Below are positions 2,860 to 40,586 of a stretch of DNA of 64,000 bases, piece after piece. The DNA is from Bdellovibrionales bacterium. GTDB taxonomy: Bacteria > Bdellovibrionota > Bdellovibrionia > Bdellovibrionales > UBA1609. Location: NCBI GenBank assembly GCA_027317865.1, contig DAHVQG010000002.1, positions 160,001 through 224,000 of the forward strand. Reading direction: 5' to 3'. Below the pieces are notes generated by a model, which did no database searches, was not told the origin of the DNA, and worked only from the letters and a program-made list of their open reading frames with translations. Each line of letters begins with the position of its first letter. The first letter of the stretch is position 1. The translations under genes were made by a program, and so were the position numbers.

Positions 2860-3646
2860 ACGAATCGAACGTAATGGCGTTCGGGTTTTTCATAACATCA
2901 TGAAATTCGCGCTTCATCGAATCGACAAGCTCTTTATCGACTTGCCCCGCCCGCAGAAGCTCATCTACGGCACTCAACATCAATTCTTCTCGATCGCGCA
3001 GCAGTTTTTCGCGCAGTTCCGGCTCGCGCTTGTCTGCGTACATAAGCTTCACGTTTGTGCGCACGTCGGTGTAGCCGGCATCGCGCAAGAAATTACCCAG
3101 TTTTACGCCGACAAATGGGTCGCCACTCCGATCGTATTGATAGTCGTTAAAAGCCATCCAAAACTTCCAAATTGCGGGGCAATAGGGGTCCAAGAAATAC
3201 GAGAAGTTCATCACCTCAGAAATGACAATCCGCGAACCCGGTTTAAGCACACGTCGAACTTCACCTAAAACACGCATAGGATTTGGCATGTGCTCCATCA
3301 CCCAACAGATAAAAGCTCCGCCAAACGTATTTTCCGCAAACGTCATTTTCTCAGCGTTCATTTTGTGAATTTCAAAGCGATCACGGGCGTAATCGAGTTG
3401 GCCAAGAGTCTCTCGTGCCGCCTGCAATTGTTCGTCATTTATGTCAATACATGTGATCTTTAGGTGCGGAAAGCGGCGAAGCAAAATTTGTGTCTGCGCG
3501 CCGACGCCACATCCGACTTCAAGCAAATGCTCAGTTTGTGAAAAATTGACGTCTTGATATATAACAAACTCAGTCAGCTCCGCTTGCCGACGGAGCCGAT
3601 CTTGTTCAACAGTCGAATAGCCATGAATGTATTTCTGTTCAGTCAT
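2831..3646 (-). CDS. Class I SAM-dependent methyltransferase
   Basis: LLEVGCGVG motif I; VLGEVRRVLKPG. Confidence 0.85.
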   Translation of the reverse strand: MTEQKYIHGYSTVEQDRLRRQAELTEFVIYQDVNFSQTEHLLEVGCGVGAQTQILLRRFPHLKITCIDINDEQLQAARETLGQLDYARDRFEIHKMNAEKMTFAENTFGGAFICWVMEHMPNPMRVLGEVRRVLKPGSRIVISEVMNFSYFLDPYCPAIWKFWMAFNDYQYDRSGDPFVGVKLGNFLRDAGYTDVRTNVKLMYADKREPELREKLLRDREELMLSAVDELLRAGQVDKELVDSMKREFHDVMKNPNAITFDSFMQATARVP

Positions 3647-24149: not shown

Positions 24150-24980
24150 TTATTCATTAATCAATTTCAGTGCGGCTTCATTGTTCGTATTAGCTTGAGC
24201 CAATGTAGAGATAGCCGCTTGTCGCAAAACCTCAGCAGAGGCAAGTTGCGAACTTTCGTAAGCGACATCGGCGTCTGCAATACGCGACCGCGCAGCCGAC
24301 ACATTTTCGTATTCTGTTTCAACGGAGCTGTTAACTGATTGTAAGCGGCTTTGCACAGCGCCAAAGTCAGCTCGCATTTTATTAATGCGGTTAAGAGCTT
24401 CATCCACAGATGAGAGCGTATCTCGCGCGCTATCTTTGTCTGCAACCGAAAGGCCGTCGATTCCCAGTGCCGAATTAGTTGCATCAGCAGAAACATTAGC
24501 TCGAATCTCATCATTATGACTATTATACGGTCCAACTTGAAACACCATTTGACCGGCGTCTCCGGTTAGTAGTCGTCTGTGTCCAAATCGCGTACTCATG
24601 GCGATTCGATTTGATTCTTTTGTCAATTGTTGAGCTTCAATATTTAAATATTTACGGTCGCGATCCGAAACCGTATCACTCGCAGCCTCGACAGCTAGCT
24701 CTCTTAATCTGATTAATATATTCGAAATTTGGTTGAGACCGCCTTCACCGATTTGAATCATCGATTGCGCGTTCGATGCGTTTTGTTTGGCCATCTTAAG
24801 GCTGCCGACTTGCGCGCCGAGTTCGGAACTGATCGCAAGTCCGGCCGGGTCGTCCGACGCGTGAACAATTCGGTTACCCGACGCCAATGATTCTTCGGCA
24901 TGTTGCAACCGTTTTTGGTTGGAATACAAATGCCTTTGCGCATCTATCGCTGCTATGTTTGTATTAATTCGTAAGCCCAT
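24150..24980 (-). CDS. fliC: Flagellin (276 aa, lacking large D2/D3 domains)
   Basis: MGLRINTN, LASGNRI, RLRELAV, RADFGAVQSRL, SRIADAD, LAQAN. Confidence 0.95.
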   Translation of the reverse strand: MGLRINTNIAAIDAQRHLYSNQKRLQHAEESLASGNRIVHASDDPAGLAISSELGAQVGSLKMAKQNASNAQSMIQIGEGGLNQISNILIRLRELAVEAASDTVSDRDRKYLNIEAQQLTKESNRIAMSTRFGHRRLLTGDAGQMVFQVGPYNSHNDEIRANVSADATNSALGIDGLSVADKDSARDTLSSVDEALNRINKMRADFGAVQSRLQSVNSSVETEYENVSAARSRIADADVAYESSQLASAEVLRQAAISTLAQANTNNEAALKLINE

Positions 24981-25050
24981 AAATTAGCCCTCCAACAGGT
25001 TTTATTTTTTTGTTGGAGGCAACCAACGTGCTCCAACTTATTCAGGTGAC

Positions 25051-25078
25051 TCATCGACCAAGGTCCAGTTTTACTTTA
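25051..25078 (-). promoter_or_regulatory. sigma28 promoter for flagellin 24150-24980
   Basis: TAAA-N16-GTCGATGA. Confidence 0.65.
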
Positions 25079-25172
25079 GACCTTGGTCTAGGAATAAATT
25101 GGTGCGTTGCGTCTAGTTATTGTAATTAGACTAGAATGGCAGACGAAAATTTTTTATATATGCTTTGCGTCA

Positions 25173-26003
25173 TCACTCGCCGATAAGGCTGAGCGCCGCT
25201 TTTGGGCCGGCATTGGCTTGGGCCAAAACAGCCACAGCAGCTTGATTTAATATCTGCGATTTTACGAGCTTACTTGTCGCCCGTGCGACATCGGTATCAG
25301 CAATAGTTGATCGCGCTGACTCTTCGTTTTCCTTTTGCACATCCAGGTTATCTATCGCGTAATTCAGGCGACTTTGAACGGCGCCAAATCGCGCTCGTAT
25401 ATCGGCAACTTGATTGAGCGCCTCGTCGATAGACGAAAGCGCGTCTCGCGCGTCATCTTTTTCAGAAATGTCGAGGTCATCAATGCCGACTGCAGACGCC
25501 TGCGTATTGGCATCGGAGGTAAATTGAATTTGACTATTTCCTCCTGCGTCGGGACCAACCTGAAATAAATATTTATTATTTTCACCCGTTAGAAGACGTT
25601 TTGAACCAAACCGGGTTGTTCTTGCAATTTGGCTGAATTCTTGAATCAACTGTGTAAATTCGCGATTAGCATAACTGCGGTCTTTATCTGTCATCGTGTC
25701 ACTGGCCGCCCCCACGGCAAGTTCACGAAGGCGAATTAGAATATTATTTTGCTCGTTCAATGCACCTTCGGCTGTTTGGGTAAGCGATTGCGCCATCCGC
25801 GCATTGAGACGGGCTTGATCAAGACTTTTGGTTTGTGCTAGCAGTTCGTTACTGATGGCATATTGAGCGGGATCACTATGCGCAGAATTCAGGCGAAAAC
25901 CCGAGGCCAATTCACTAAGAGCGCTCTGAATTTGTTTTTGGTGATTAGCAATGCTTCGCCGTGCGATAAGCGACGAAATATTTGTATCTATTCTTAACGG
26001 CAT
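25173..26003 (-). CDS. fliC: Flagellin (276 aa, divergent paralog)
   Basis: MPLRIDTN, LASGFRLN, RLRELAV, RARFGAVQSRL, IADTD, LAQAN. Confidence 0.93.
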   Translation of the reverse strand: MPLRIDTNISSLIARRSIANHQKQIQSALSELASGFRLNSAHSDPAQYAISNELLAQTKSLDQARLNARMAQSLTQTAEGALNEQNNILIRLRELAVGAASDTMTDKDRSYANREFTQLIQEFSQIARTTRFGSKRLLTGENNKYLFQVGPDAGGNSQIQFTSDANTQASAVGIDDLDISEKDDARDALSSIDEALNQVADIRARFGAVQSRLNYAIDNLDVQKENEESARSTIADTDVARATSKLVKSQILNQAAVAVLAQANAGPKAALSLIGE

Positions 26004-26106
26004 ACGGGCACCCTCCTACCAACGACCAAGTATTTGCCTCCCCAATTAGGCAAATTTAAGCCTAGGACCTGTGCCCACGGATTATCTCTTACGAACCTCT
26101 ACTCAT

Positions 26107-26133
26107 TTATCGGTGCGCCGCGTTATATCTTTA
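26107..26133 (-). promoter_or_regulatory. sigma28 promoter for flagellin 25173-26003
   Basis: TAAA-N15-ACCGATAA. Confidence 0.8.
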
Positions 26134-26428
26134 GACCTTTCTTGTGCCGAGCGTTAAGTGCTAGATCGCGCTGCCAAATATAGCGCGAAAGAGCCACTGA
26201 CTTTAAACTTTTATTTCGTTGATTTCTCGATTTGAGATAATCTGCAAGCCGCACCAAAGTATCGCTCAAATTTTCAGTATGTTCCTTTGTTGAGTCGAGC
26301 GGATCTTGCTCGGTGGGATCAACTTCGCCTACGTCAATTGATGCTTCGTCGAGCGATTCCAAAACATTGTCGAGATCTTCGGCCGGTGGGCCCCCCAAGA
26401 CATGTGGCTCAAGTTTAGACACACGCAC
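26123..26428 (-). CDS. Small hypothetical protein (acidic N-terminus, basic C-terminus)
   Basis: The track ATG (26449) lies inside a sigma28 -10 box. A GGAGG SD precedes GTG at 26428 or 26422. Confidence 0.55.
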   Translation of the reverse strand: MRVSKLEPHVLGGPPAEDLDNVLESLDEASIDVGEVDPTEQDPLDSTKEHTENLSDTLVRLADYLKSRNQRNKSLKSVALSRYIWQRDLALNARHKKGLKI

Positions 26429-33333: not shown

Positions 33334-33852
33334 TTATAATTCGGCGTCACGCTGAACGCGAACAACACCAATGTGTTGGGCTTGAGCTTTAAATGACGTA
33401 GCTGGATTTTGTACAATCCGCTGCTGAAGCTTTGAAAAAATCGGCTCGCGAATCGCAAGCGAGCTGTCTTGTAAAACGCATTGCCGTGCGATTTTCTTTT
33501 TGGGGTTTACAACAATCGGAGCCTTTAAGTTGGCCGTCATCTGCGTTGGATCGACGGGAATCGTGATAATAGTGAAAAATCGCGCCTCGTCCATCGACGC
33601 AAATCCTAGAGATTCGAAATCTGACTTTGAAAGATCAACAGTATAATGAGGCGAGAACATTTCTGGCTCTAAAACCGGAAACGCTATTTCTGAATCTTCG
33701 CAACTTTGAAGCCATGCAAAGATATCATCGTTTGGATCGTCCAAAAGTACAAACCGGCGCAGATGTCCAAAGCCGAGTAAGCCTTCGGCAAATTCAAGCA
33801 CGTCATCCTGAGTGACGGCCACATCCCCAAACCGTGTCGTTTGGATAGTCAT
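33334..33852 (-). CDS. fliW: Flagellar assembly factor / CsrA antagonist
   Basis: TTRFG, GLLGF, WLQS, MTANLKAPIVVN. Confidence 0.95.
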   Translation of the reverse strand: MTIQTTRFGDVAVTQDDVLEFAEGLLGFGHLRRFVLLDDPNDDIFAWLQSCEDSEIAFPVLEPEMFSPHYTVDLSKSDFESLGFASMDEARFFTIITIPVDPTQMTANLKAPIVVNPKKKIARQCVLQDSSLAIREPIFSKLQQRIVQNPATSFKAQAQHIGVVRVQRDAEL

Positions 33853-33938
33853 TCCCCCTCCATTTTCGAGGATGCCCTTAAAAATATGACACCGCAAGCC
33901 TAAATATAGGGAAAAATCTATCCCATTGGCGAGTTCAG

Positions 33939-34235
33939 CTACTCGTCGTCACTTGCTTTTGCGCTAATTGATATGCCTTTTTTTGGCGTAACACCGTCAG
34001 ATAAGGCGTCTGATTTCAACAGTTGCGAAACGGCACGCGTTGCGTCAGGGCGCGCAAGAGACGCGTCTTCATTTTGCTTTTTGATAGCTTGGTAGACCTC
34101 TTCACGGTAAATGCGCGTTTCTTTCGGCGCCTCGATACCAAGGCGTACCTGTTTGCCGCGGATTTTCTCAATCCGAATTTTAATATTGTCGTCGATTGTT
34201 ATACTTTCGCCCAGTTTGCGTGTGAGAACCAGCAT
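33939..34235 (-). CDS. csrA: Carbon storage regulator with long C-terminal helix (FliW-binding type)
   Basis: MLVLTRKLGESI, VRLGIEAPKE, REEVYQAIKKQNEDA. Confidence 0.97.
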   Translation of the reverse strand: MLVLTRKLGESITIDDNIKIRIEKIRGKQVRLGIEAPKETRIYREEVYQAIKKQNEDASLARPDATRAVSQLLKSDALSDGVTPKKGISISAKASDDE

Positions 34236-34354: not shown

Positions 34355-35449
34355 TCACGTTTGTACAAAATCCATAAGACTTTTTTGCAGAATCTTACCG
34401 GACGTCTCGAGGGTTGCCTTGAGCGCGTCCTGTGCTTTGTTAATGTTACTTACGACATGAAATACATCAGCATCTTGAAGTTGCGAAATCGCTCCCTTGT
34501 CATCAACAAGATGCGTGTGCATGGAATTCAGCGTGCTGTTAATCGCTTTCATTCTAGAACCCAATGCTGAACGTGCAATGATCACTTGCTGTAAAGCATT
34601 TCCTAAATGATCAATCGACTCTTGAATTCCTTGTCGGTCATTTGTTGAAAGTGCGATTTGAAAATTCTTAAGCGCATTTAATACGTCCACTCCGTTTTTA
34701 GGTGGAATTGATTGATCTAATGGCGCGACATTTTCGCTGATTCCAATCGATGCCGGCCCTCGCGTTGATAGATCGGGTTGATTAATATCTCCACTGTTTT
34801 GTTTGCCGAACAGTTGGGGATCTTGTGTTTCTTGCTCTTTGAGTTGGCTGAGAGTTCGCGCCTGAGTCGGATCATGAAACCGCAAGCCGTCGGGCGAAAG
34901 TCCTTTACCCAAAAATGCGACTGACCCGGGCATATTCATGGCCATGTACGTGTCTTTATCGATATTGACTTTCATCTCGCCGTTATCGCCGCGATAGTAG
35001 CCATTCTGATCAAATGGCGGACGGGTGGTATCAAACCCGCCAAATATAAAACGATCGCCTAATTGCCGGTTACCAATTTGAATTGCCTCGTCATAAAGTT
35101 GTCGAACTTCGACGGCAACGCTCCGACGTGTCTCCGGGTTTGCACTGCCATCGTTAGACTGGCTAATTGCCAACTCTTTCGCGCGAATTAAAAGGTTAAC
35201 CAAATCTCCGAGCGACTGCGCAGAATATGCAAGAAAACTTTTAGCGTAGTTTAAATTTTTGATGAATTGCTGAGTCGCGCGCTCGTCAGTTCGCTCGCTC
35301 AACACTTGCGTAGCGGCGACCGGGTCGTCGGACGGCTTTGTCACTCGCAGCTGCGTAGCCGCTTCGTTTTGGTACTTTTCAAGTTCAGCCCGATTGCGGG
35401 CGATCCCGCGGTTGACTTGATCATAGGCCATAATATCGGCAACTCTCAT
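34355..35449 (-). CDS. flgL: Hook-associated protein 3
   Basis: RVTKPSDDPVA, FIFGG, SLMDFV. Confidence 0.95.
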   Translation of the reverse strand: MRVADIMAYDQVNRGIARNRAELEKYQNEAATQLRVTKPSDDPVAATQVLSERTDERATQQFIKNLNYAKSFLAYSAQSLGDLVNLLIRAKELAISQSNDGSANPETRRSVAVEVRQLYDEAIQIGNRQLGDRFIFGGFDTTRPPFDQNGYYRGDNGEMKVNIDKDTYMAMNMPGSVAFLGKGLSPDGLRFHDPTQARTLSQLKEQETQDPQLFGKQNSGDINQPDLSTRGPASIGISENVAPLDQSIPPKNGVDVLNALKNFQIALSTNDRQGIQESIDHLGNALQQVIIARSALGSRMKAINSTLNSMHTHLVDDKGAISQLQDADVFHVVSNINKAQDALKATLETSGKILQKSLMDFVQT

Positions 35450-35474: not shown

Positions 35475-36896
35475 CTAATCTTTGAGATGCATTACCGTGT
35501 TCATCATCTCATTTGCCACGTTGATCAACCTCGCTGAAGCTTCAAACATTTTTTGATACTCAATCATTTTTTCTGTCTCTTCATCGAGGCTCACGCCGCT
35601 TATACTGTCACGGATATTTTTAATTTGATCCACGATATCTTTCTGTGAAGCCTTTTCTGAATTAGCGCGAGCCGAAGTCGCCCCAACGTCGCCGACAATA
35701 TTATCGTAGAACCCGTCGAACGTACTTTGGCCCTTGCCCATTGCATTTTGATACTCAAGAGATGATATGAGGTTCGCCACGCGGTTGTCGCCAGGAGCGT
35801 TCGGCTGCGCTGCCGCCACTAAGCGACCTGGATCTTCAAGTACAAGTTGATTAACGGCCATTCGCGAAGCGGCGCCCTTTTTATTACCGACGACGAATAA
35901 ATCCACCCCAGGGCGGTTCAACCGATCATAGCCAGACTTATGAATTTGGTTAATTTGAGTTGCGAGCGTGTAGGCAAGGTCATCGACTTTGTCGAGTGTG
36001 TGATTAATGAATTGATCGCGAACTTGTAACAGACCCCCTAACGAACCACCTGTGATTTGTTTTGTAACAACCACCGGCGTTCCGTCGTTAGTGGCCTGAT
36101 AAAATATATCAACGTCACCTTCGGCCTTGCCCTTGCGACCTGGTGTCGACTCAACGGTAAGATTGCGATGCATAGATCCTGATACTAATATCGCGGAGTC
36201 GCCGGCAGTTACGGTGAGTTCGCCGGTTTTACTTTCCGCGTAACGGATATTGATCATTTTGCCGAGTTCTCTAACGAGCTCATCGCGTCGGTCACGTTCG
36301 TCATTAGCCGTAACGCCGTCAATCTCGACCGCCGCAATTTTTTTATTAAGCGAAGCGATTTCACCAGTTATTTTGTTTACGTTTGCAACTTCGTTGTGAA
36401 TTTCAAAATCCGCTTCGCCTTGAATATGCTGGAGGCGCCCGCTCACACCGCGAAAATCTTGAGCCATGAATTTTGCTTGTTCTTTAACCTGATCGCGTAA
36501 CGCGACATTTTCCGGATCGTTTGACATTTCTCGATAGGCATTAAAAAAGGCGTCAATAGACTTATTAAGGCCACCGTGCTGTTGCTCATTAAATACCTGA
36601 TCGACCCGCCCCAATAAACTGGCCCGCGCGTCCCGCTCTCCCTCGACGTTAATCGCCTGTTGAAGTTGCTTTTCAATAAAAGGGTTATGGATTCGTACAA
36701 TTCGCTTTGCAACGGCTCCGTTACCGAGAAGCAAGCGCCCGTCGACCGTTGGGTTAGCCGTTTCGATATCGACTCGCTGGCGGGAATAACCGGCTACGTT
36801 TTTATTGGCGATATTATGGCTGATCGTCTGAAGAGCCGTTTGGCTATTCATCATCGACTGCTTGCCGATATCCATGATCGACCAAATTCGAGACAT
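35475..36896 (-). CDS. flgK: Hook-associated protein 1
   Basis: SHNIAN..GYSRQ; SGVSLDEE..MIEYQ. Start at 36896 with CAGGAG SD. Confidence 0.96.
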   Translation of the reverse strand: MSRIWSIMDIGKQSMMNSQTALQTISHNIANKNVAGYSRQRVDIETANPTVDGRLLLGNGAVAKRIVRIHNPFIEKQLQQAINVEGERDARASLLGRVDQVFNEQQHGGLNKSIDAFFNAYREMSNDPENVALRDQVKEQAKFMAQDFRGVSGRLQHIQGEADFEIHNEVANVNKITGEIASLNKKIAAVEIDGVTANDERDRRDELVRELGKMINIRYAESKTGELTVTAGDSAILVSGSMHRNLTVESTPGRKGKAEGDVDIFYQATNDGTPVVVTKQITGGSLGGLLQVRDQFINHTLDKVDDLAYTLATQINQIHKSGYDRLNRPGVDLFVVGNKKGAASRMAVNQLVLEDPGRLVAAAQPNAPGDNRVANLISSLEYQNAMGKGQSTFDGFYDNIVGDVGATSARANSEKASQKDIVDQIKNIRDSISGVSLDEETEKMIEYQKMFEASARLINVANEMMNTVMHLKD

Positions 36897-36915
36897 CGTG
36901 TCTCCTGCCTTTTTT

Positions 36916-36939
36916 GCGAAATTCATCCGTGAATTTCGC
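36916..36939 (-). promoter_or_regulatory. CsrA-consensus hairpin in the flgK leader
   Basis: GCGAAAUUCA-CGGA-UGAAUUUCGC, perfect 10-bp stem; UCACGGAUGA fits (A/U)CANGGANG(U/A). Confidence 0.75.
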
Positions 36940-36972: not shown

Positions 36973-37485
36973 CTATACCTCTTTACTTACCAATTGCCCG
37001 GAATCAGCCGGCGGCGCCACCATACCCCCCGATTTTCGGTAGGTGGGTTTATCACGCAGTTGATTACGTATGGAGCCAATTGCACCCGTGATATTTTCAA
37101 GGGCTGAATTTACCAACGCTTCATTTTGCTGATTGTGCTCACGTACACGACGTAACAGTAATTCCAATACCGATTGCCGACTACGTAACCGCTCGCCCGG
37201 CTCGCCGTCAAAATGCCGGGCAAAATCAATTAGTTTAGTTTGTTCTGGTAGGCCTTCAGCTTCGGCCAATAGGCGGGCTGCTTTTTGCCGCTCATCTTCA
37301 AGTTGACGGGCCTTAACCAACATTGTTTCTTTGGAATGATTGTTTTCGTTGAGCGCCTCTAGCTGCGCTGAAATTAAAATTTCGCGCTCTTGCCGAACAA
37401 CATTCAAAATCCCGCGATAAACTTTAATCAGATCGTCGAGAGACCGGTCGAGGTTTTCAAAAGCTTCTCGGGATTCTTCTTTCAT
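36973..37485 (-). CDS. flgN: Flagellar export chaperone
   Basis: Between flgM and flgK; NQQNEALV; KPTY. Confidence 0.85.
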   Translation of the reverse strand: MKEESREAFENLDRSLDDLIKVYRGILNVVRQEREILISAQLEALNENNHSKETMLVKARQLEDERQKAARLLAEAEGLPEQTKLIDFARHFDGEPGERLRSRQSVLELLLRRVREHNQQNEALVNSALENITGAIGSIRNQLRDKPTYRKSGGMVAPPADSGQLVSKEV

Positions 37486-37503
37486 TTCTCCATCCGTTTT
37501 AAT

Positions 37504-37821
37504 CTAGTCCGAGTTGTTATTCATTTTTAAGTGTTCGTCGACCAACCGATCGGCGATCGCCGACGAATCGACATTATACTTGCCTTCATCTATCAACTTT
37601 TGCAGACGCGCCACTTTGGCCTCGTTGATACCGTTTGGGTTTGCGAGCATTTTTGCTTTTTGTAAGGCTAAACCGTCAGGCGACATTTGCACCTGCGCCG
37701 AATCAAGCCGGTCCGCAATTCCCGTCCGTTCTTTATTACGAGCATTTTTCATTTCAAGATCGCCAAGATTTTTCAAATGCGCCGACATCAAAGCTGAATT
37801 TTTCGTATTGTTTATTTTCAT
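37504..37821 (-). CDS. flgM: Anti-sigma28 factor
   Basis: KVARLQKLIDEGKYNVDSSAIADRLV. Confidence 0.92.
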   Translation of the reverse strand: MKINNTKNSALMSAHLKNLGDLEMKNARNKERTGIADRLDSAQVQMSPDGLALQKAKMLANPNGINEAKVARLQKLIDEGKYNVDSSAIADRLVDEHLKMNNNSD

Positions 37822-37882
37822 CCCCGCTCCTTCTGCTATTACACCACGCGCCGAACTCGAGTTATCATCTTATAATATCGTA

Positions 37883-38563
37883 TCATACTGAGACATTGAT
37901 TTGCCATGCTAAACCTTGCGCTGTGGGAGCAAGAGTACCTAGCTTTTCGCCTGCACTCAGGCGTTCGCCCGGAACTAAGTCGCGACAATGCCCGACAAAA
38001 CTCAGAGTCGAGACAAGACCATTGTCGTGGGCGAGTTTAACCGTTTGACGGTCGTCATTGTGGCGAAAAGCCTGCAAAACCTCGGCGTCTAACGGTGACG
38101 TGACGTCACGAGACTCCAGTTTTGCGCCGTCATTCCACTCATATAAGAAGCTCAACTCTTTTTGCTTACTCGATTGCGGGGACGCCAGCGGTATGCCTAG
38201 AGGTTTTTTATTTTTTTCAATTTTGAACCGCACGTCCTTATTAATTGGAATCGGCCCCTTGATTGGTTGTACGGTGTTTGGGTCAAGATATCTATCTTTG
38301 AGTTGATTGTAGATCAATTGAGCAAGACCAACGCCACCCTGTTGGGACCATTTATCAACGTATTGCTGGTCCAATTGTTGACGGTAGAGCTGTTGGGCGA
38401 ATGTCGGCTTCTGGGCCGGCACAATCGTCTTACGCATGGCCTTAACCATTTCGTCAAGAAAGTATTCTTCATACTGCTTTGAAACGGCTCGCGCCCTGGC
38501 ATCTTCATTCTGCACGGGAGGCTGAAGAGACAATCCGTGCGCGACTTTAAAAACTTGGGCCAT
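37883..38563 (-). CDS. flgJ: FlgJ rod-binding domain plus degenerate M23-like domain
   Basis: VSKQYEEYFLDEMVKAMRKT; GVGLAQLIYNQL; C-terminal SPLDAEV...LAHDNG...GERLSAGEKLG. Confidence 0.8.
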   Translation of the reverse strand: MAQVFKVAHGLSLQPPVQNEDARARAVSKQYEEYFLDEMVKAMRKTIVPAQKPTFAQQLYRQQLDQQYVDKWSQQGGVGLAQLIYNQLKDRYLDPNTVQPIKGPIPINKDVRFKIEKNKKPLGIPLASPQSSKQKELSFLYEWNDGAKLESRDVTSPLDAEVLQAFRHNDDRQTVKLAHDNGLVSTLSFVGHCRDLVPGERLSAGEKLGTLAPTAQGLAWQINVSV

Positions 38564-38617
38564 ACAAGCCTCCGTGCGCCGGCTTTGTAACGCTGTCGCC
38601 GCCTCGCACTCTAGTTT

Positions 38618-38821
38618 AAAAAAATGAGGGAAAGTGAGTCAGGTGCTACGCGCATCCTGCGCGCTCTTCCAGCAAACTATCGGTAAACTTATCACCTAAA
38701 CATTTGCCCCATGTCTCCTGCCAGACATCTGGAATCTCTTGACCATCCATGGCCAAACGCTCTCTAACTCACTCCTCCCCCCGGGCGAAAAATCCACCAC
38801 ATCCATATGTCAGATTTTTCG
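38618..38821 (-). ncRNA. Candidate CsrA-binding (Csr/Rsm-like) structured RNA in the flgI-flgJ intergenic region
   Basis: Closing stem 38764-38780/38626-38642 (16 of 17 positions pair, with G-U pairs only on the minus strand) and U7 tail. Hairpin loops carry AUGGAU (x2), CAGGAG and CAGGAUG. Confidence 0.65.
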
Positions 38822-38824
38822 TTT

Positions 38825-39832
38825 TCATATAACCTTCAACTCCGCCTGCAGTGCGCCTGCGGCTTTAATAGCTTCTAAAATTGTAATCAAATCTTTCGGC
38901 GAAACACCCATTTGATTCATCGCTTTTACAATGGCTCCGACGCTTGCCGAGTTGTTCAGCATAAACATTTTGCCGCCTTTGCCTTTGGATTTTTCCGAAT
39001 TGCCAACGCGAATTGACAAATTACCGTGCGAAATAGCAACGGGCGAAATTTTAACGCCGCTGCCAATCACAACAGTTCCCGTATTTTCATCCACCACAAC
39101 TTCAGCCTTCATATCAGGTGAAACATTCAAGTTTTCAATCGTTGCAAGAAGTTCAACACCTTTGCCTTCGTATGAAGGGGGCGTGATGAGATTAATCGTG
39201 CCCGCGTCAAGAGCCGAGGCATATTGGCCGCCGAGCTCCATGTTAATCGCTTTTACGATTCGAGCTGCCGTCGTAAAATCGGGATTGTGCAGAGTTAAAC
39301 GAAACATGTTTCGGTCGGCGAAATCGCTGCCGAGATCGCGCTCAATGATCGCGCCGTCGGGTATGCGCCCAACTGTTTCATGAACACCGCCTGAATTCGA
39401 CCCGACAAGAATTGACCCTTGTGCTACCGCGTAGGTTTGTTGATTGGCAGCACGTAATGGAGTTTGAACGAGCATTCCCCCACGCAAACTTTTCGCATCG
39501 CCGATCGAACTCACCGTTACATCAATTTGGTTGCCGGCGCGTGCAAAAGGCGGGAGTGTCGCAGTCACAATCACGGCCGCCACGTTTTTTGTGGCTAAAT
39601 TTTTATTATTTAATTTCATTCCTAATCGGTCGAGCATGCGACCGACGCTCGTATTCGTAAATGGCATTTTGTTGTCGCCGGTCCCAGCGAGGCCCACGAC
39701 GAGCCCATATCCCACCAATTGATTTGTTCGCACGCCACGGACATTCGCGATATCTTTTATGCGCTCCGCGTGAGCATTCAAGCCCAATGCGACAATTACA
39801 ATGAGTATTTGTAAAACGATAAATGCTCGCAT
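38825..39832 (-). CDS. flgI: Flagellar P-ring protein
   Basis: RIKDIANVRGVRTNQLVGYGLVVGLAGTGD; AGALQAEL. Confidence 0.97.
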   Translation of the reverse strand: MRAFIVLQILIVIVALGLNAHAERIKDIANVRGVRTNQLVGYGLVVGLAGTGDNKMPFTNTSVGRMLDRLGMKLNNKNLATKNVAAVIVTATLPPFARAGNQIDVTVSSIGDAKSLRGGMLVQTPLRAANQQTYAVAQGSILVGSNSGGVHETVGRIPDGAIIERDLGSDFADRNMFRLTLHNPDFTTAARIVKAINMELGGQYASALDAGTINLITPPSYEGKGVELLATIENLNVSPDMKAEVVVDENTGTVVIGSGVKISPVAISHGNLSIRVGNSEKSKGKGGKMFMLNNSASVGAIVKAMNQMGVSPKDLITILEAIKAAGALQAELKVI

Positions 39833-39833
39833 G

Positions 39834-40586
39834 TCAGTAATCTCCCAGATCTGCGCCCTTTGCGCTGACAATGTCGAAGTTTCCGTTGAGGAGTTGGGTC
39901 GCGTCGATCCCCTGGTCGTTGAAATCTTCGGAGCGAACAATTCCCGAAACAATGACTTTATACTCGCGCGGCCCAATTAAAAATGTTTGCAAGCCGCGTA
40001 CGCGATAATTGCCATTCACCAATCGGCCAACAACGCGAGCTGGTACCATGTGAACCTTAAAGGCGTAGTTTGAACCGGGATTATTTAACGCCGGCGACTT
40101 CGCCGCTGCGCCTTTCGCACCTTTGACCGCAGTGTTGGCAGGTGCATTAGAAGTCGACGAAGGCGCACGTAAACCGACTATCATCCGCCGCCTTGCCGCC
40201 AACTGCGCCAGCAACTTTGCAATCACTTGCGCCTTAGCAGCAAGCTGAGCCTGAGGGTCGCCGTTAAGTATGATCGGAATCGGATCCCCGACCATGTGTA
40301 CAGTATTTTGCGAAAATAAGTAGGCGCCTTGACCTTGCATCACCCAAAGCGATCCGGCATCACTGCCAAGATGCGCCTGGTGTTCAAGATCTGCAGCCGT
40401 CACATGATGGTATTGCCGATAAATGCTTGGTTCGACATTATTTTGTTCGTTGTAAGTAAGTGGTTGGGGCGCCGCTGGAGCTGGCGAAACTCCGCCATTC
40501 ACAAAATTTCTCCACCGCTCACCGAGTGTCGTGCAATTCGTCAGAGAAAATAAAAATAAAGCAAGCATTATCGCTCTGACGGTCAT
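39834..40586 (-). CDS. flgH: Flagellar L-ring protein (divergent)
   Basis: LTNC lipobox; GSLW; VGD; ARVV..LVNGN; VSGIVRSED; position between flgA and flgI. Confidence 0.8.
   Translation of the reverse strand: MTVRAIMLALFLFSLTNCTTLGERWRNFVNGGVSPAPAAPQPLTYNEQNNVEPSIYRQYHHVTAADLEHQAHLGSDAGSLWVMQGQGAYLFSQNTVHMVGDPIPIILNGDPQAQLAAKAQVIAKLLAQLAARRRMIVGLRAPSSTSNAPANTAVKGAKGAAAKSPALNNPGSNYAFKVHMVPARVVGRLVNGNYRVRGLQTFLIGPREYKVIVSGIVRSEDFNDQGIDATQLLNGNFDIVSAKGADLGDY

Follow-up and report, generated by a model that had tools for sequence, protein, structure and literature searches.

The spacer between the flagellar genes flgI and flgJ in a Bdellovibrionales genome, studied here within a stretch of 64,000 nucleotides (positions 160,001 to 224,000 of contig DAHVQG010000002.1, GenBank assembly GCA_027317865.1; "the window"), holds a copy of an order-wide, single-copy, conserved and strand-specific structured non-coding RNA of the Bdellovibrionales. 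Judged by sequence and predicted structure, this RNA is homologous to APsRNA1, an attack-phase small RNA of Bdellovibrio bacteriovorus HD100, and its repeated GGA motifs, its fold and its linkage to csrA and fliW make it a probable sponge for CsrA. The original prediction, made from the window alone, had presented the element as a novel CsrA-sequestering RNA. This novelty holds for the function, whereas the transcript itself was already reported in 2013 as APsRNA1; as far as the literature that we searched goes, neither the family with its breadth nor its likely function has been published.

A conserved, structured RNA between flgI and flgJ

The spacer (38564-38824, 261 bp) separates flgI from a flgJ-like rod-binding gene, all on the minus strand, and it carries 9 GGA motifs on this strand versus 2 on the plus strand, the same counts as in the original prediction. 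Nine or more GGA are reached by 0.16% of 1275 minus-strand windows of 261 nt from the 64-kb window. The minimum free energy (MFE) fold of the minus strand lies at -96.1 kcal/mol (z -4.21; 0 of 200 shuffles equally good) and that of the plus strand at -67.5 (z -2.76; 2 of 200 shuffles equally good). A covariance model, R1, was built on an alignment of the window with 12 relatives (A1; 218 positions, 54 pairs). The predicted elements of the RNA, taken from the MFE fold unless stated otherwise, are the following:

38615-38826, minus strand: whole predicted small RNA (match to covariance model R1, 176.2 bits, E 4e-49)
38786-38821, minus strand: 5' hairpin H1, with a 10-bp lower stem CGAAAAAUCU/GGAUUUUUCG and a 4-bp upper stem
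38759-38781, minus strand: 5' strand of the long-range closing stem P1, GGGGGAGGAGUGAGUUAGAGAGC
38738-38757, minus strand: hairpin H2, UUUGGCCA-UGGA-UGGUCAAG, with its GGA at 38748-38746
38709-38732, minus strand: hairpin H3, CCA..UGUCU-GGCAGG-AGACA..UGG
38671-38708, minus strand: two-tier arm H4, GGCAAAU/GUUUGCU around UUAGGUGA-UAAGU-UUACCGA
38668-38670, minus strand: unpaired GGA in the H4-H5 junction CUGGAAG
38648-38664, minus strand: hairpin H5, GCGCGCA-GGA-UGCGCGU, with its GGA at 38657-38655
38626-38646, minus strand: 3' strand of P1, GCACCUGACUCACUUUCCCUC
38618-38624, minus strand: U7 tract after P1 with one A between (from the sequence)
38571-38573, minus strand: GGA in the flgJ Shine-Dalgarno region CACGGAGGCUUGUAUG, downstream of the terminator (from the sequence)

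The loop of H1 is UGGA (38805-38802), and P1 comprises 20 pairs including 3 G-U (38781-38759 with 38646-38626). All hairpins that had originally been folded by hand recur in the MFE structure, and so does the closing stem, which had been given 16 of 17 pairs with 4 G-U; an additional UUCCA/UGGAA pairing does not recur and competes with the lower part of H3. The core RNA contains 8 GGA, of which 3 are predicted in hairpin loops (H1, H2, H5), 1 partly so (H3) and 1 unpaired in the H4-H5 junction, whose CUGGAA is common to the window's genus and genome G007, while two GGA are buried in the 5' strand of P1. Several GGA with most of them in the loops of short hairpins, as found here, are a mark of CsrA/RsmA-sequestering small RNAs. 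The G+C-rich stem directly before a U tract that defines an intrinsic terminator is provided by P1 and U7, and each of the 13 first relatives likewise has a U run after P1. A simple scan of 38300-39200 returned no terminator because the "loop" of P1 is a 112-nt multi-branch insert that exceeds the limit of the scanner. Going by the HD100 homologue, the RNA of the window would begin near 38826-38821 and end within the U tract (38624-38618).

BLAST recovered the spacer stretch from all 6 genomes of the window's genus and from several other genera, and 13 of 13 loci checked from these matches have the flgI-flgJ position. With R1, exactly one copy was found in 59 of 109 genomes and 22 of 35 genera of the window's family, and 112 of 151 genomes sampled across the order Bdellovibrionales were positive with at least one match in each of its 13 families; one contaminated assembly in this sample has two copies. 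In a sample of the phylum, R1 again matched 20 of 24 Bdellovibrionales genomes and, among 127 genomes from outside the order, gave one weak match (G278, E 1e-3) that we take as chance because it lies on a different contig from flgI. The C-terminus of flgI is encoded directly upstream on the same strand in 116 of the 118 loci matched by the model (median gap 36 nt), with the other two loci ending at contig edges, and a flgJ-like gene follows downstream in 106 of them. Finally, an exact-pattern scan of one genome per species (185,579 species) returned 55 records, all of them metagenome-assembled: 53 are titled Bdellovibrionales, Bdellovibrionia, Bdellovibrionota, Bdellovibrio sp., Pseudobdellovibrionaceae or Bdellovibrionaceae, one "Proteobacteria bacterium" and one "Streptomyces griseus". 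The last of these (L094) is probably a mislabelled or contaminated bin since all other matches come from Bdellovibrionota.

Across the same 151 genomes of the order, CsrA was found in 140 and FlgI in 133. The cross-tabulation with the RNA was tallied by hand, as was the pairing of RNA and csrA loci:

FlgI present: RNA found in 111 genomes, not found in 22
FlgI absent: RNA found in 1 genome, not found in 17
CsrA present: RNA found in 108 genomes, not found in 32
CsrA absent: RNA found in 4 genomes, not found in 7

The sole RNA-positive genome without FlgI is 84% complete and has its match at a contig edge, and the four RNA-positive genomes without CsrA are fragmented assemblies. As expected of a CsrA/RsmA-sequestering small RNA, csrA is thus found in the same genome, and 83 of 87 hand-paired genomes with both on one contig have it 4.0-7.6 kb downstream of the RNA in the same orientation. 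Under laxer filters, the spacers of six of the 22 RNA-negative FlgI-positive genomes revealed five divergent or truncated copies (G128, G025, G146, G171, G191). In the sixth genome, G172 of genus g28, the start codon of flgJ overlaps the stop codon of flgI (L204:2440-2460), so that the RNA is truly lost there. The diverged copy in its genus mate G128 (L138:1239-1465) has 8 GGA.

Conservation of the structure was assessed on two alignments. RNAalifold on the MAFFT alignment A1, which was not fitted to a structure, predicted H1, P1, H4 and H5 with compensatory changes at 7 of 42 pairs. In 85 order-wide RNAs aligned to R1 (A3), which is structure-fitted so that its covariation counts lean toward the structure of the model, paired cells amount to 82.3% (71.1% shuffled), both sides change at 50 of 54 pairs, and the covariation score is 0.296 (0.138 shuffled), a value reached by 0 of 500 shuffles, though related sequences may beat shuffles without any structure. 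This score is 0.05-0.07 when pairing partners are slid by 1-3 columns. By element, 98.6% of cells are paired in H5, with 37 double changes at one pair (U-A 46, C-G 32), 93.2% in H4, 92.2% in H1, with covariation at 6 of 6 modelled pairs, and 84.6-93.7% in P1, with changes on both sides at 15 of 15 pairs of helix 3. The upper 3-4 pairs of H2 are conserved and its lower pairs are weak, and the window's genus differs from others in the pairing register of H3; as two such registers are combined in the seed alignment, the counts for H3 and lower H2 are poor. H1 is longer than in the model, and its lower stem is wholly different between genera with complementarity kept; a GGA-capped H1 hairpin with at least 7 pairs exists in 98 of 117 loci.

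Among the findings named in advance as grounds for giving up the original prediction were a match to a known unrelated Rfam family and one to a dispersed repeat, and neither was encountered. A cmscan search of 37500-40000 with E up to 10 gave only chance matches (snoTBR6, AsdA, SOX2OT_exon4), with none to the covariance models of CsrB, CsrC, RsmX, RsmY or RsmZ and none to a described riboswitch aptamer family, and the element is single-copy in its own 2.65-Mb genome, where other matches span at most 21 nt with E of at least 0.6. The gap had also been called free of open reading frames (ORFs). This is correct for conserved ORFs; mechanical ORFs of 20-36 aa do exist. They were rejected as small proteins, being not conserved, with indels among relatives that are not multiples of three, and in the closest relative an ATG frame beginning in the H1 loop is cut off by a stop codon after 12 codons.

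Some spacers elsewhere in the phylum are worth recording. In G234, from another order, the spacer of about 300 nt downstream of flgI (L205:2452-2765) contains 13 GGA, several of them in neat hairpins such as AUGCA-AGGA-UGCAU; it gave no R1 match and its fold is not significant (z -1.58), and it could represent an analogue or a highly diverged form of the RNA. In G235 and G278 (family f21 of another order; L206 and L207), a short leader after flgI has two GGA-loop hairpins, one of which adjoins the start codon in the classical layout of a CsrA-repressed mRNA. Such a two-hairpin flgJ leader may be the ancestral state of the sponge.

APsRNA1, the homologue in B. bacteriovorus HD100

Eight attack-phase small RNAs of B. 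bacteriovorus HD100 were listed by Karunker et al. in 2013 (PLoS One 8:e61850, PMC3627812). Among them, APsRNA1 (499,375-499,581, plus strand, 207 nt) reaches 50,451 reads per kilobase per million mapped reads (RPKM) in the attack phase and 3,181 in the growth phase (PMC3627812, Table 2), and its start comes from start-site data enriched with tobacco acid pyrophosphatase (TAP) and carries no FliA-promoter flag (PMC3627812). It occupies the same flgI-flgJ spacer, as follows from the coordinates of flgI (Bd0535, 498,325-499,332) and flgJ (Bd0536, 499,642-500,349) in Table S1 of that paper. On genome G166, where the HD100 coordinates translate as complete FlgI, FlgJ-like and FliW ORFs, R1 matches at 499,371-499,590 (plus strand, 80.2 bits). 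The window RNA has two marks of an APsRNA1 family member, homology in sequence and structure and the flgI-flgJ position on the coding strand.

The published boundaries agree closely with the predicted fold: on G166, the start of APsRNA1 lies 5 nt before the H1 stem and its end is the third U of U7 after P1. By the RPKM values of Table S1 (PMC3627812), APsRNA1 in the attack phase is about 3400 times as abundant as flgI and about 6500 times as abundant as flgJ, and expression falls more than 1000-fold across the terminator. The HD100 RNA is therefore a discrete, highly abundant primary transcript. A discrete RNA ending in the U tract was what the original prediction had envisaged, and the 207-nt homologue bears this out. 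Its further suggestion that the RNA is probably processed does not agree with a TAP-enriched start just before H1 and with a level so far above that of flgI. Between the APsRNA1 terminator and flgJ, G166 has a second terminator-like hairpin with a U run (L137:1694-1725).

According to Table S1 of PMC3627812, RPKM values of neighbouring genes in the attack phase and the late growth phase (GP3) are 15.0 and 9.0 for flgI, 7.7 and 41.5 for flgJ, 92 and 1,344 for flgM, and 41 and 3,077 for Bd0543. The latter is listed as "putative transmembrane protein" and is FliW by Pfam (4.2e-37; G166, L137:6758-7285). The csrA ORF of G166 (L137:6265-6492), whose product shares 66% identity over 74 aa with CsrA of the window, has no row in Table S1. 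A csrA gene without a row and a FliW listed as a transmembrane protein may explain why APsRNA1 was never linked to CsrA. Karunker et al. proposed no function for APsRNA1 and reported no homology outside B. bacteriovorus, and CsrA has 0 occurrences in PMC3627812. We found APsRNA1 in no other paper, and no CsrA-sponge claim for Bdellovibrio, in the literature searched. Among public RNA sequencing runs, the homologous G166 stretch appears in 14 runs from 6 studies; in the 4 of these 14 that were examined, contigs of 9-13 kb span the whole stretch and are silent on start, end, strand and level.

Upstream of the HD100 copy, a 43-nt spacer after flgI is associated with a TACAAT box and an inverted repeat. 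This conserved repeat, TGTTTC-N5-GAnACA, precedes a TAnAAT box by 8 nt in 29 of 117 loci, HD100 included (G166, L137:1440-1470). Counted from the published start of APsRNA1 it covers about -36 to -20, a position that suggests a dedicated transcription factor acting as a dimer. Neither the window nor most of its family has this repeat. No upstream palindrome of the GacA/UvrY type was recognised, although the comparison with that site was not made letter by letter.

GGA loops and a candidate CsrA sponge

The original prediction had expected invariant GGA loops on covarying stems, and this is the pattern seen across the 85 RNAs of A3, where five loops keep A(N)GGA(N)G while their stems covary. 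Counting truncated matches as well, GGA is kept at the loop of H1 in 78 of 85 RNAs (commonest context AUGGAUG), of H2 in 84 (A/C-A/U-GGA-U/A-G), of H3 in 73 (GCAGGA kept; commonest context CAGGAAA), of H4 in 65 (A/U-AGGA-U/A; commonest context AAGGAUU) and of H5 in 79 (CAGGAUG, the commonest context, in 63 of 85), and all five loop GGA are kept in 55 of 85. The two closest relatives of the window (G005, G006) have AAGGAUU at H4 where the window has UAAGU, so that the missing GGA of its H4 is a recent, lineage-specific loss of one putative CsrA site. The window accordingly appears to display the CsrA-type motif in four hairpin loops (H1, H2, H3, H5) versus five in most relatives.

CsrA ligands obtained by SELEX have the consensus RUACARGGAUGU with ACA and GGA invariant, and GGA was in a hairpin loop in 51 of 55 of them (review by Pourciau et al., PMC7652899). 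By our own count, H1 of most relatives (ACACAUGGAUGUGU) fits this consensus at 10 of 12 positions. Simply counting the GGA in all hairpins of at least 3 bp, a crude measure, gives 5.2 per RNA versus 3.1 in shuffles; it separates weakly and is too unspecific, and the counts at aligned loops were used instead. As for the protein, CsrA of B. bacteriovorus represses a GGA-dependent B. subtilis hag reporter according to a 2026 paper (PMC13443453), which also states that very little is known on CsrA in this organism and refers to a transposon screen in which csrA was implicated in predation.

We consider it probable, on the grounds of motif, structure and csrA-fliW linkage, that the RNA is a CsrA sponge. 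In such a mechanism, an RNA of about 205 nt would fold into the 5' hairpin H1 and a multi-branch domain of H2-H5 closed by P1, with P1 and U7 ending the transcript. CsrA dimers with two RNA-binding faces each would bridge pairs of loops, 2-3 dimers per RNA, and the sequestered CsrA would be kept off mRNA targets such as flagellin as the level of free CsrA is lowered. The RNA would thereby act as an RNA antagonist beside the protein antagonist FliW. As the RNA peaks in the attack phase and the fliW message in late growth phase, these antagonists may serve different phases. FliW would act during the building of flagella (fliW message at 3,077 RPKM in late growth and 41 in the attack phase), and the sponge in the swimming attack phase (50,451 vs 3,181 RPKM). 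Its origin could lie in CsrA sites of the flgJ leader: the number of hairpins would have risen, and a closing stem able to terminate transcription would have been added, with two-hairpin leaders persisting in a sister order. This extended scenario, in which a single FliW-type CsrA faces two antagonists at opposite stages of the life cycle and the sponge evolved from a leader, is more tentative than the sponge itself, and we would not quite bet on it.

Several observations weigh against the sponge reading. Binding and titration of CsrA are deduced from motif and fold, and expression in the organism of the window by analogy with HD100. In the window, the stop codon of flgI lies about 4 nt before the H1 stem with no spacer between, and a scan of 38300-39200 gave no sigma-70-like promoter, so that a free small RNA is not assured there. 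With its beginning right at the stop codon of flgI, the RNA may be the 3' end of that gene's transcript, processed or not, or it may come from a promoter inside flgI. Also in the window, the GGA of H3 (38718-38716) lies partly in the stem and partly in the loop, and H4, which still forms a hairpin (38682-38696), has lost its loop GGA altogether. Non-loop segments, GUGAGUUAGAG and UCAAGAG, are conserved beyond the needs of a pure sponge, which may reflect a defined tertiary structure or a further partner. The genome that lost the RNA, G172, keeps flgI, flgJ and csrA, and 12 genomes without flgI keep csrA without the RNA (hand tally); all 7 RNA-negative genomes of the window's family in the order sample likewise lack flgI and have csrA. 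The presence of the RNA thus follows the flagellar cluster, with which it occurs in almost all flagellated members sampled, rather than csrA. Lastly, fliW is reported to be anti-correlated with the BarA-UvrY genes needed for transcription of Csr small RNAs (PMC7652899), which sets a low prior for an RNA antagonist here.

Some of these points would suit a cis element, either a terminator or insulator between flgB-I and flgJ-flgM-flgN-flgK-flgL-csrA-fliW or a CsrA-binding 3' untranslated region or leader by which CsrA would tune read-through or stability and hence its own expression and that of fliW, as in an autoregulatory attenuator. P1 and U7 do stand within a same-strand gene cluster, the window RNA begins at the flgI stop codon with no visible promoter, and a further GGA in the Shine-Dalgarno region of flgJ could serve as a CsrA site on read-through or flgJ mRNA; the flgJ leaders of two genomes of another order (L206, L207) have two GGA hairpins, one of them by the start codon. 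Nonetheless, we regard a cis element as unlikely: the HD100 RNA has its own start, vastly exceeds flgI and flgJ (about 3400-fold and 6500-fold) and is followed by a second terminator with almost no read-through, and five conserved sites of the high-affinity type far exceed what a terminator needs. No conserved antiterminator pairing was noticed in the alignments, though no systematic search was made. The original prediction had offered an attenuator as an alternative, and this option lost ground with no alternative fold in its support and the steep drop across the terminator in HD100.

Another reading to which we give little credence is that the fold binds a different protein or a small ligand, as has been proposed for the riboswitch-derived merRNA of B. 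bacteriovorus, or that its GGA loops pair with UCC in mRNAs, and that the likeness to CsrA sites is incidental. It would account for the strong conservation outside the loops (invariant GUGAGUUAG, UCAAGAG), for a closed multi-branch architecture unlike known Csr/Rsm sponges, for the absence of an Rfam Csr/Rsm match and for an RNA whose presence follows flagellar genes and not csrA. It is at odds with a heptamer-like motif that is repeated in five loops while the stems drift, a signature of a multivalent sequence-specific protein and not of a single ligand pocket. The motif is moreover close to the CsrA consensus (PMC7652899), and csrA is the linked gene for an RNA-binding protein. An ordinary intergenic terminator with GGA richness and fold due to chance or composition is hardly credible: the plus strand also beats its shuffles somewhat (z -2.76) and the crude hairpin count separates weakly (5.2 vs 3.1), yet this reading is contradicted by the comparative data with their order-wide conservation, compensatory changes, invariant loops and fixed synteny as well as by the abundant HD100 transcript.

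Known CsrA systems and the surrounding genes

Compared with APsRNA1 of HD100, the window copy shares the spacer and the layout of H1, P1, H2-H5 and U tract; it differs in abutting the flgI stop codon, where HD100 has 43 nt, and in lacking the GGA of H4. With CsrB/CsrC and RsmX/RsmY/RsmZ of Gammaproteobacteria, the family has in common repeated GGA hairpin loops, a 3' terminator, abundance (in HD100), a csrA gene in the genome and, as we propose by analogy, the mechanism of titration. However, it matches no Rfam model in sequence or structure, and its GGA hairpins are held within a single domain whose long-range closing stem also serves as terminator, unlike the hairpin string and separate terminator of CsrB/Rsm. 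It also lies within a flagellar gene cluster and occurs alongside FliW, a protein whose gene is reported to be missing from Gammaproteobacteria (PMC7652899). The RNA would hence work like a Csr/Rsm sponge without being a member of those Rfam families.

The CsrA-FliW-flagellin switch of B. subtilis (hag) and C. jejuni (flaA) involves the same type of CsrA, with fliW beside csrA in a flagellar cluster. CsrA is opposed there by a protein, joined at most by a target mRNA, in contrast to the dedicated non-coding RNA proposed here. Work by Dugar et al. from 2016 is said to have described the flaA mRNA of C. jejuni as a dual-function CsrA target. A further parallel is the merRNA of B. bacteriovorus, likewise a massively expressed attack-phase RNA with a proposed role in sequestration, in this case of cyclic di-GMP (PMC3627812); it differs in locus, in being a riboswitch aptamer for a small-molecule ligand and in its unrelated sequence.

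Control of CsrA is thought to be exerted either by sponge RNAs (Gammaproteobacteria, with BarA-UvrY) or by FliW (most other flagellated bacteria). If the sponge reading is right, these two modes can co-exist; in the extended scenario of two antagonists, the RNA would be the first CsrA RNA decoy known beyond the BarA/UvrY-Csr systems. A sponge role would moreover explain APsRNA1, a transcript without a function since 2013 and among the most abundant attack-phase RNAs of a predator, and offer a handle on CsrA in B. bacteriovorus. With 118 loci, a covariance model and clear boundaries, the family is defined well enough for Rfam, and it occurs in a culturable organism.

The flagellar genes around the spacer, with flgH, flgA and two rod genes upstream of flgI, are arranged as follows:

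38825-39976, minus strand: flgI, P-ring protein (Pfam PF02119, 1.7e-117)
37883-38563, minus strand: flgJ-like gene for a rod-binding protein (Pfam PF10135, Rod-binding, 2.9e-11)
37504-37821, minus strand: flgM
36973-37485, minus strand: flgN
35475-36926, minus strand: flgK
34355-35449, minus strand: flgL
33939-34235, minus strand: csrA, 98 aa, the proposed partner (Pfam PF02599, 7.9e-25)
33334-33897, minus strand: fliW, protein antagonist of CsrA (Pfam PF02623, 1e-37)

The pair csrA-fliW thus lies 4.4 kb downstream of the spacer on the same strand, and these Pfam matches confirm what the original prediction had said of it.

Elsewhere in the window, tandem flagellin genes occupy 24150-24980 and 25173-26003, with leaders on the minus strand (24981-25110 and 26004-26140) in which we did not find a clear two-site CsrA layout. 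The Shine-Dalgarno regions of both flagellin genes contain GGA, and both genes are preceded by sigma-28-like promoters, TAAAG-N15-GTCGATGA and TAAAG-N15-CACCGATAA.

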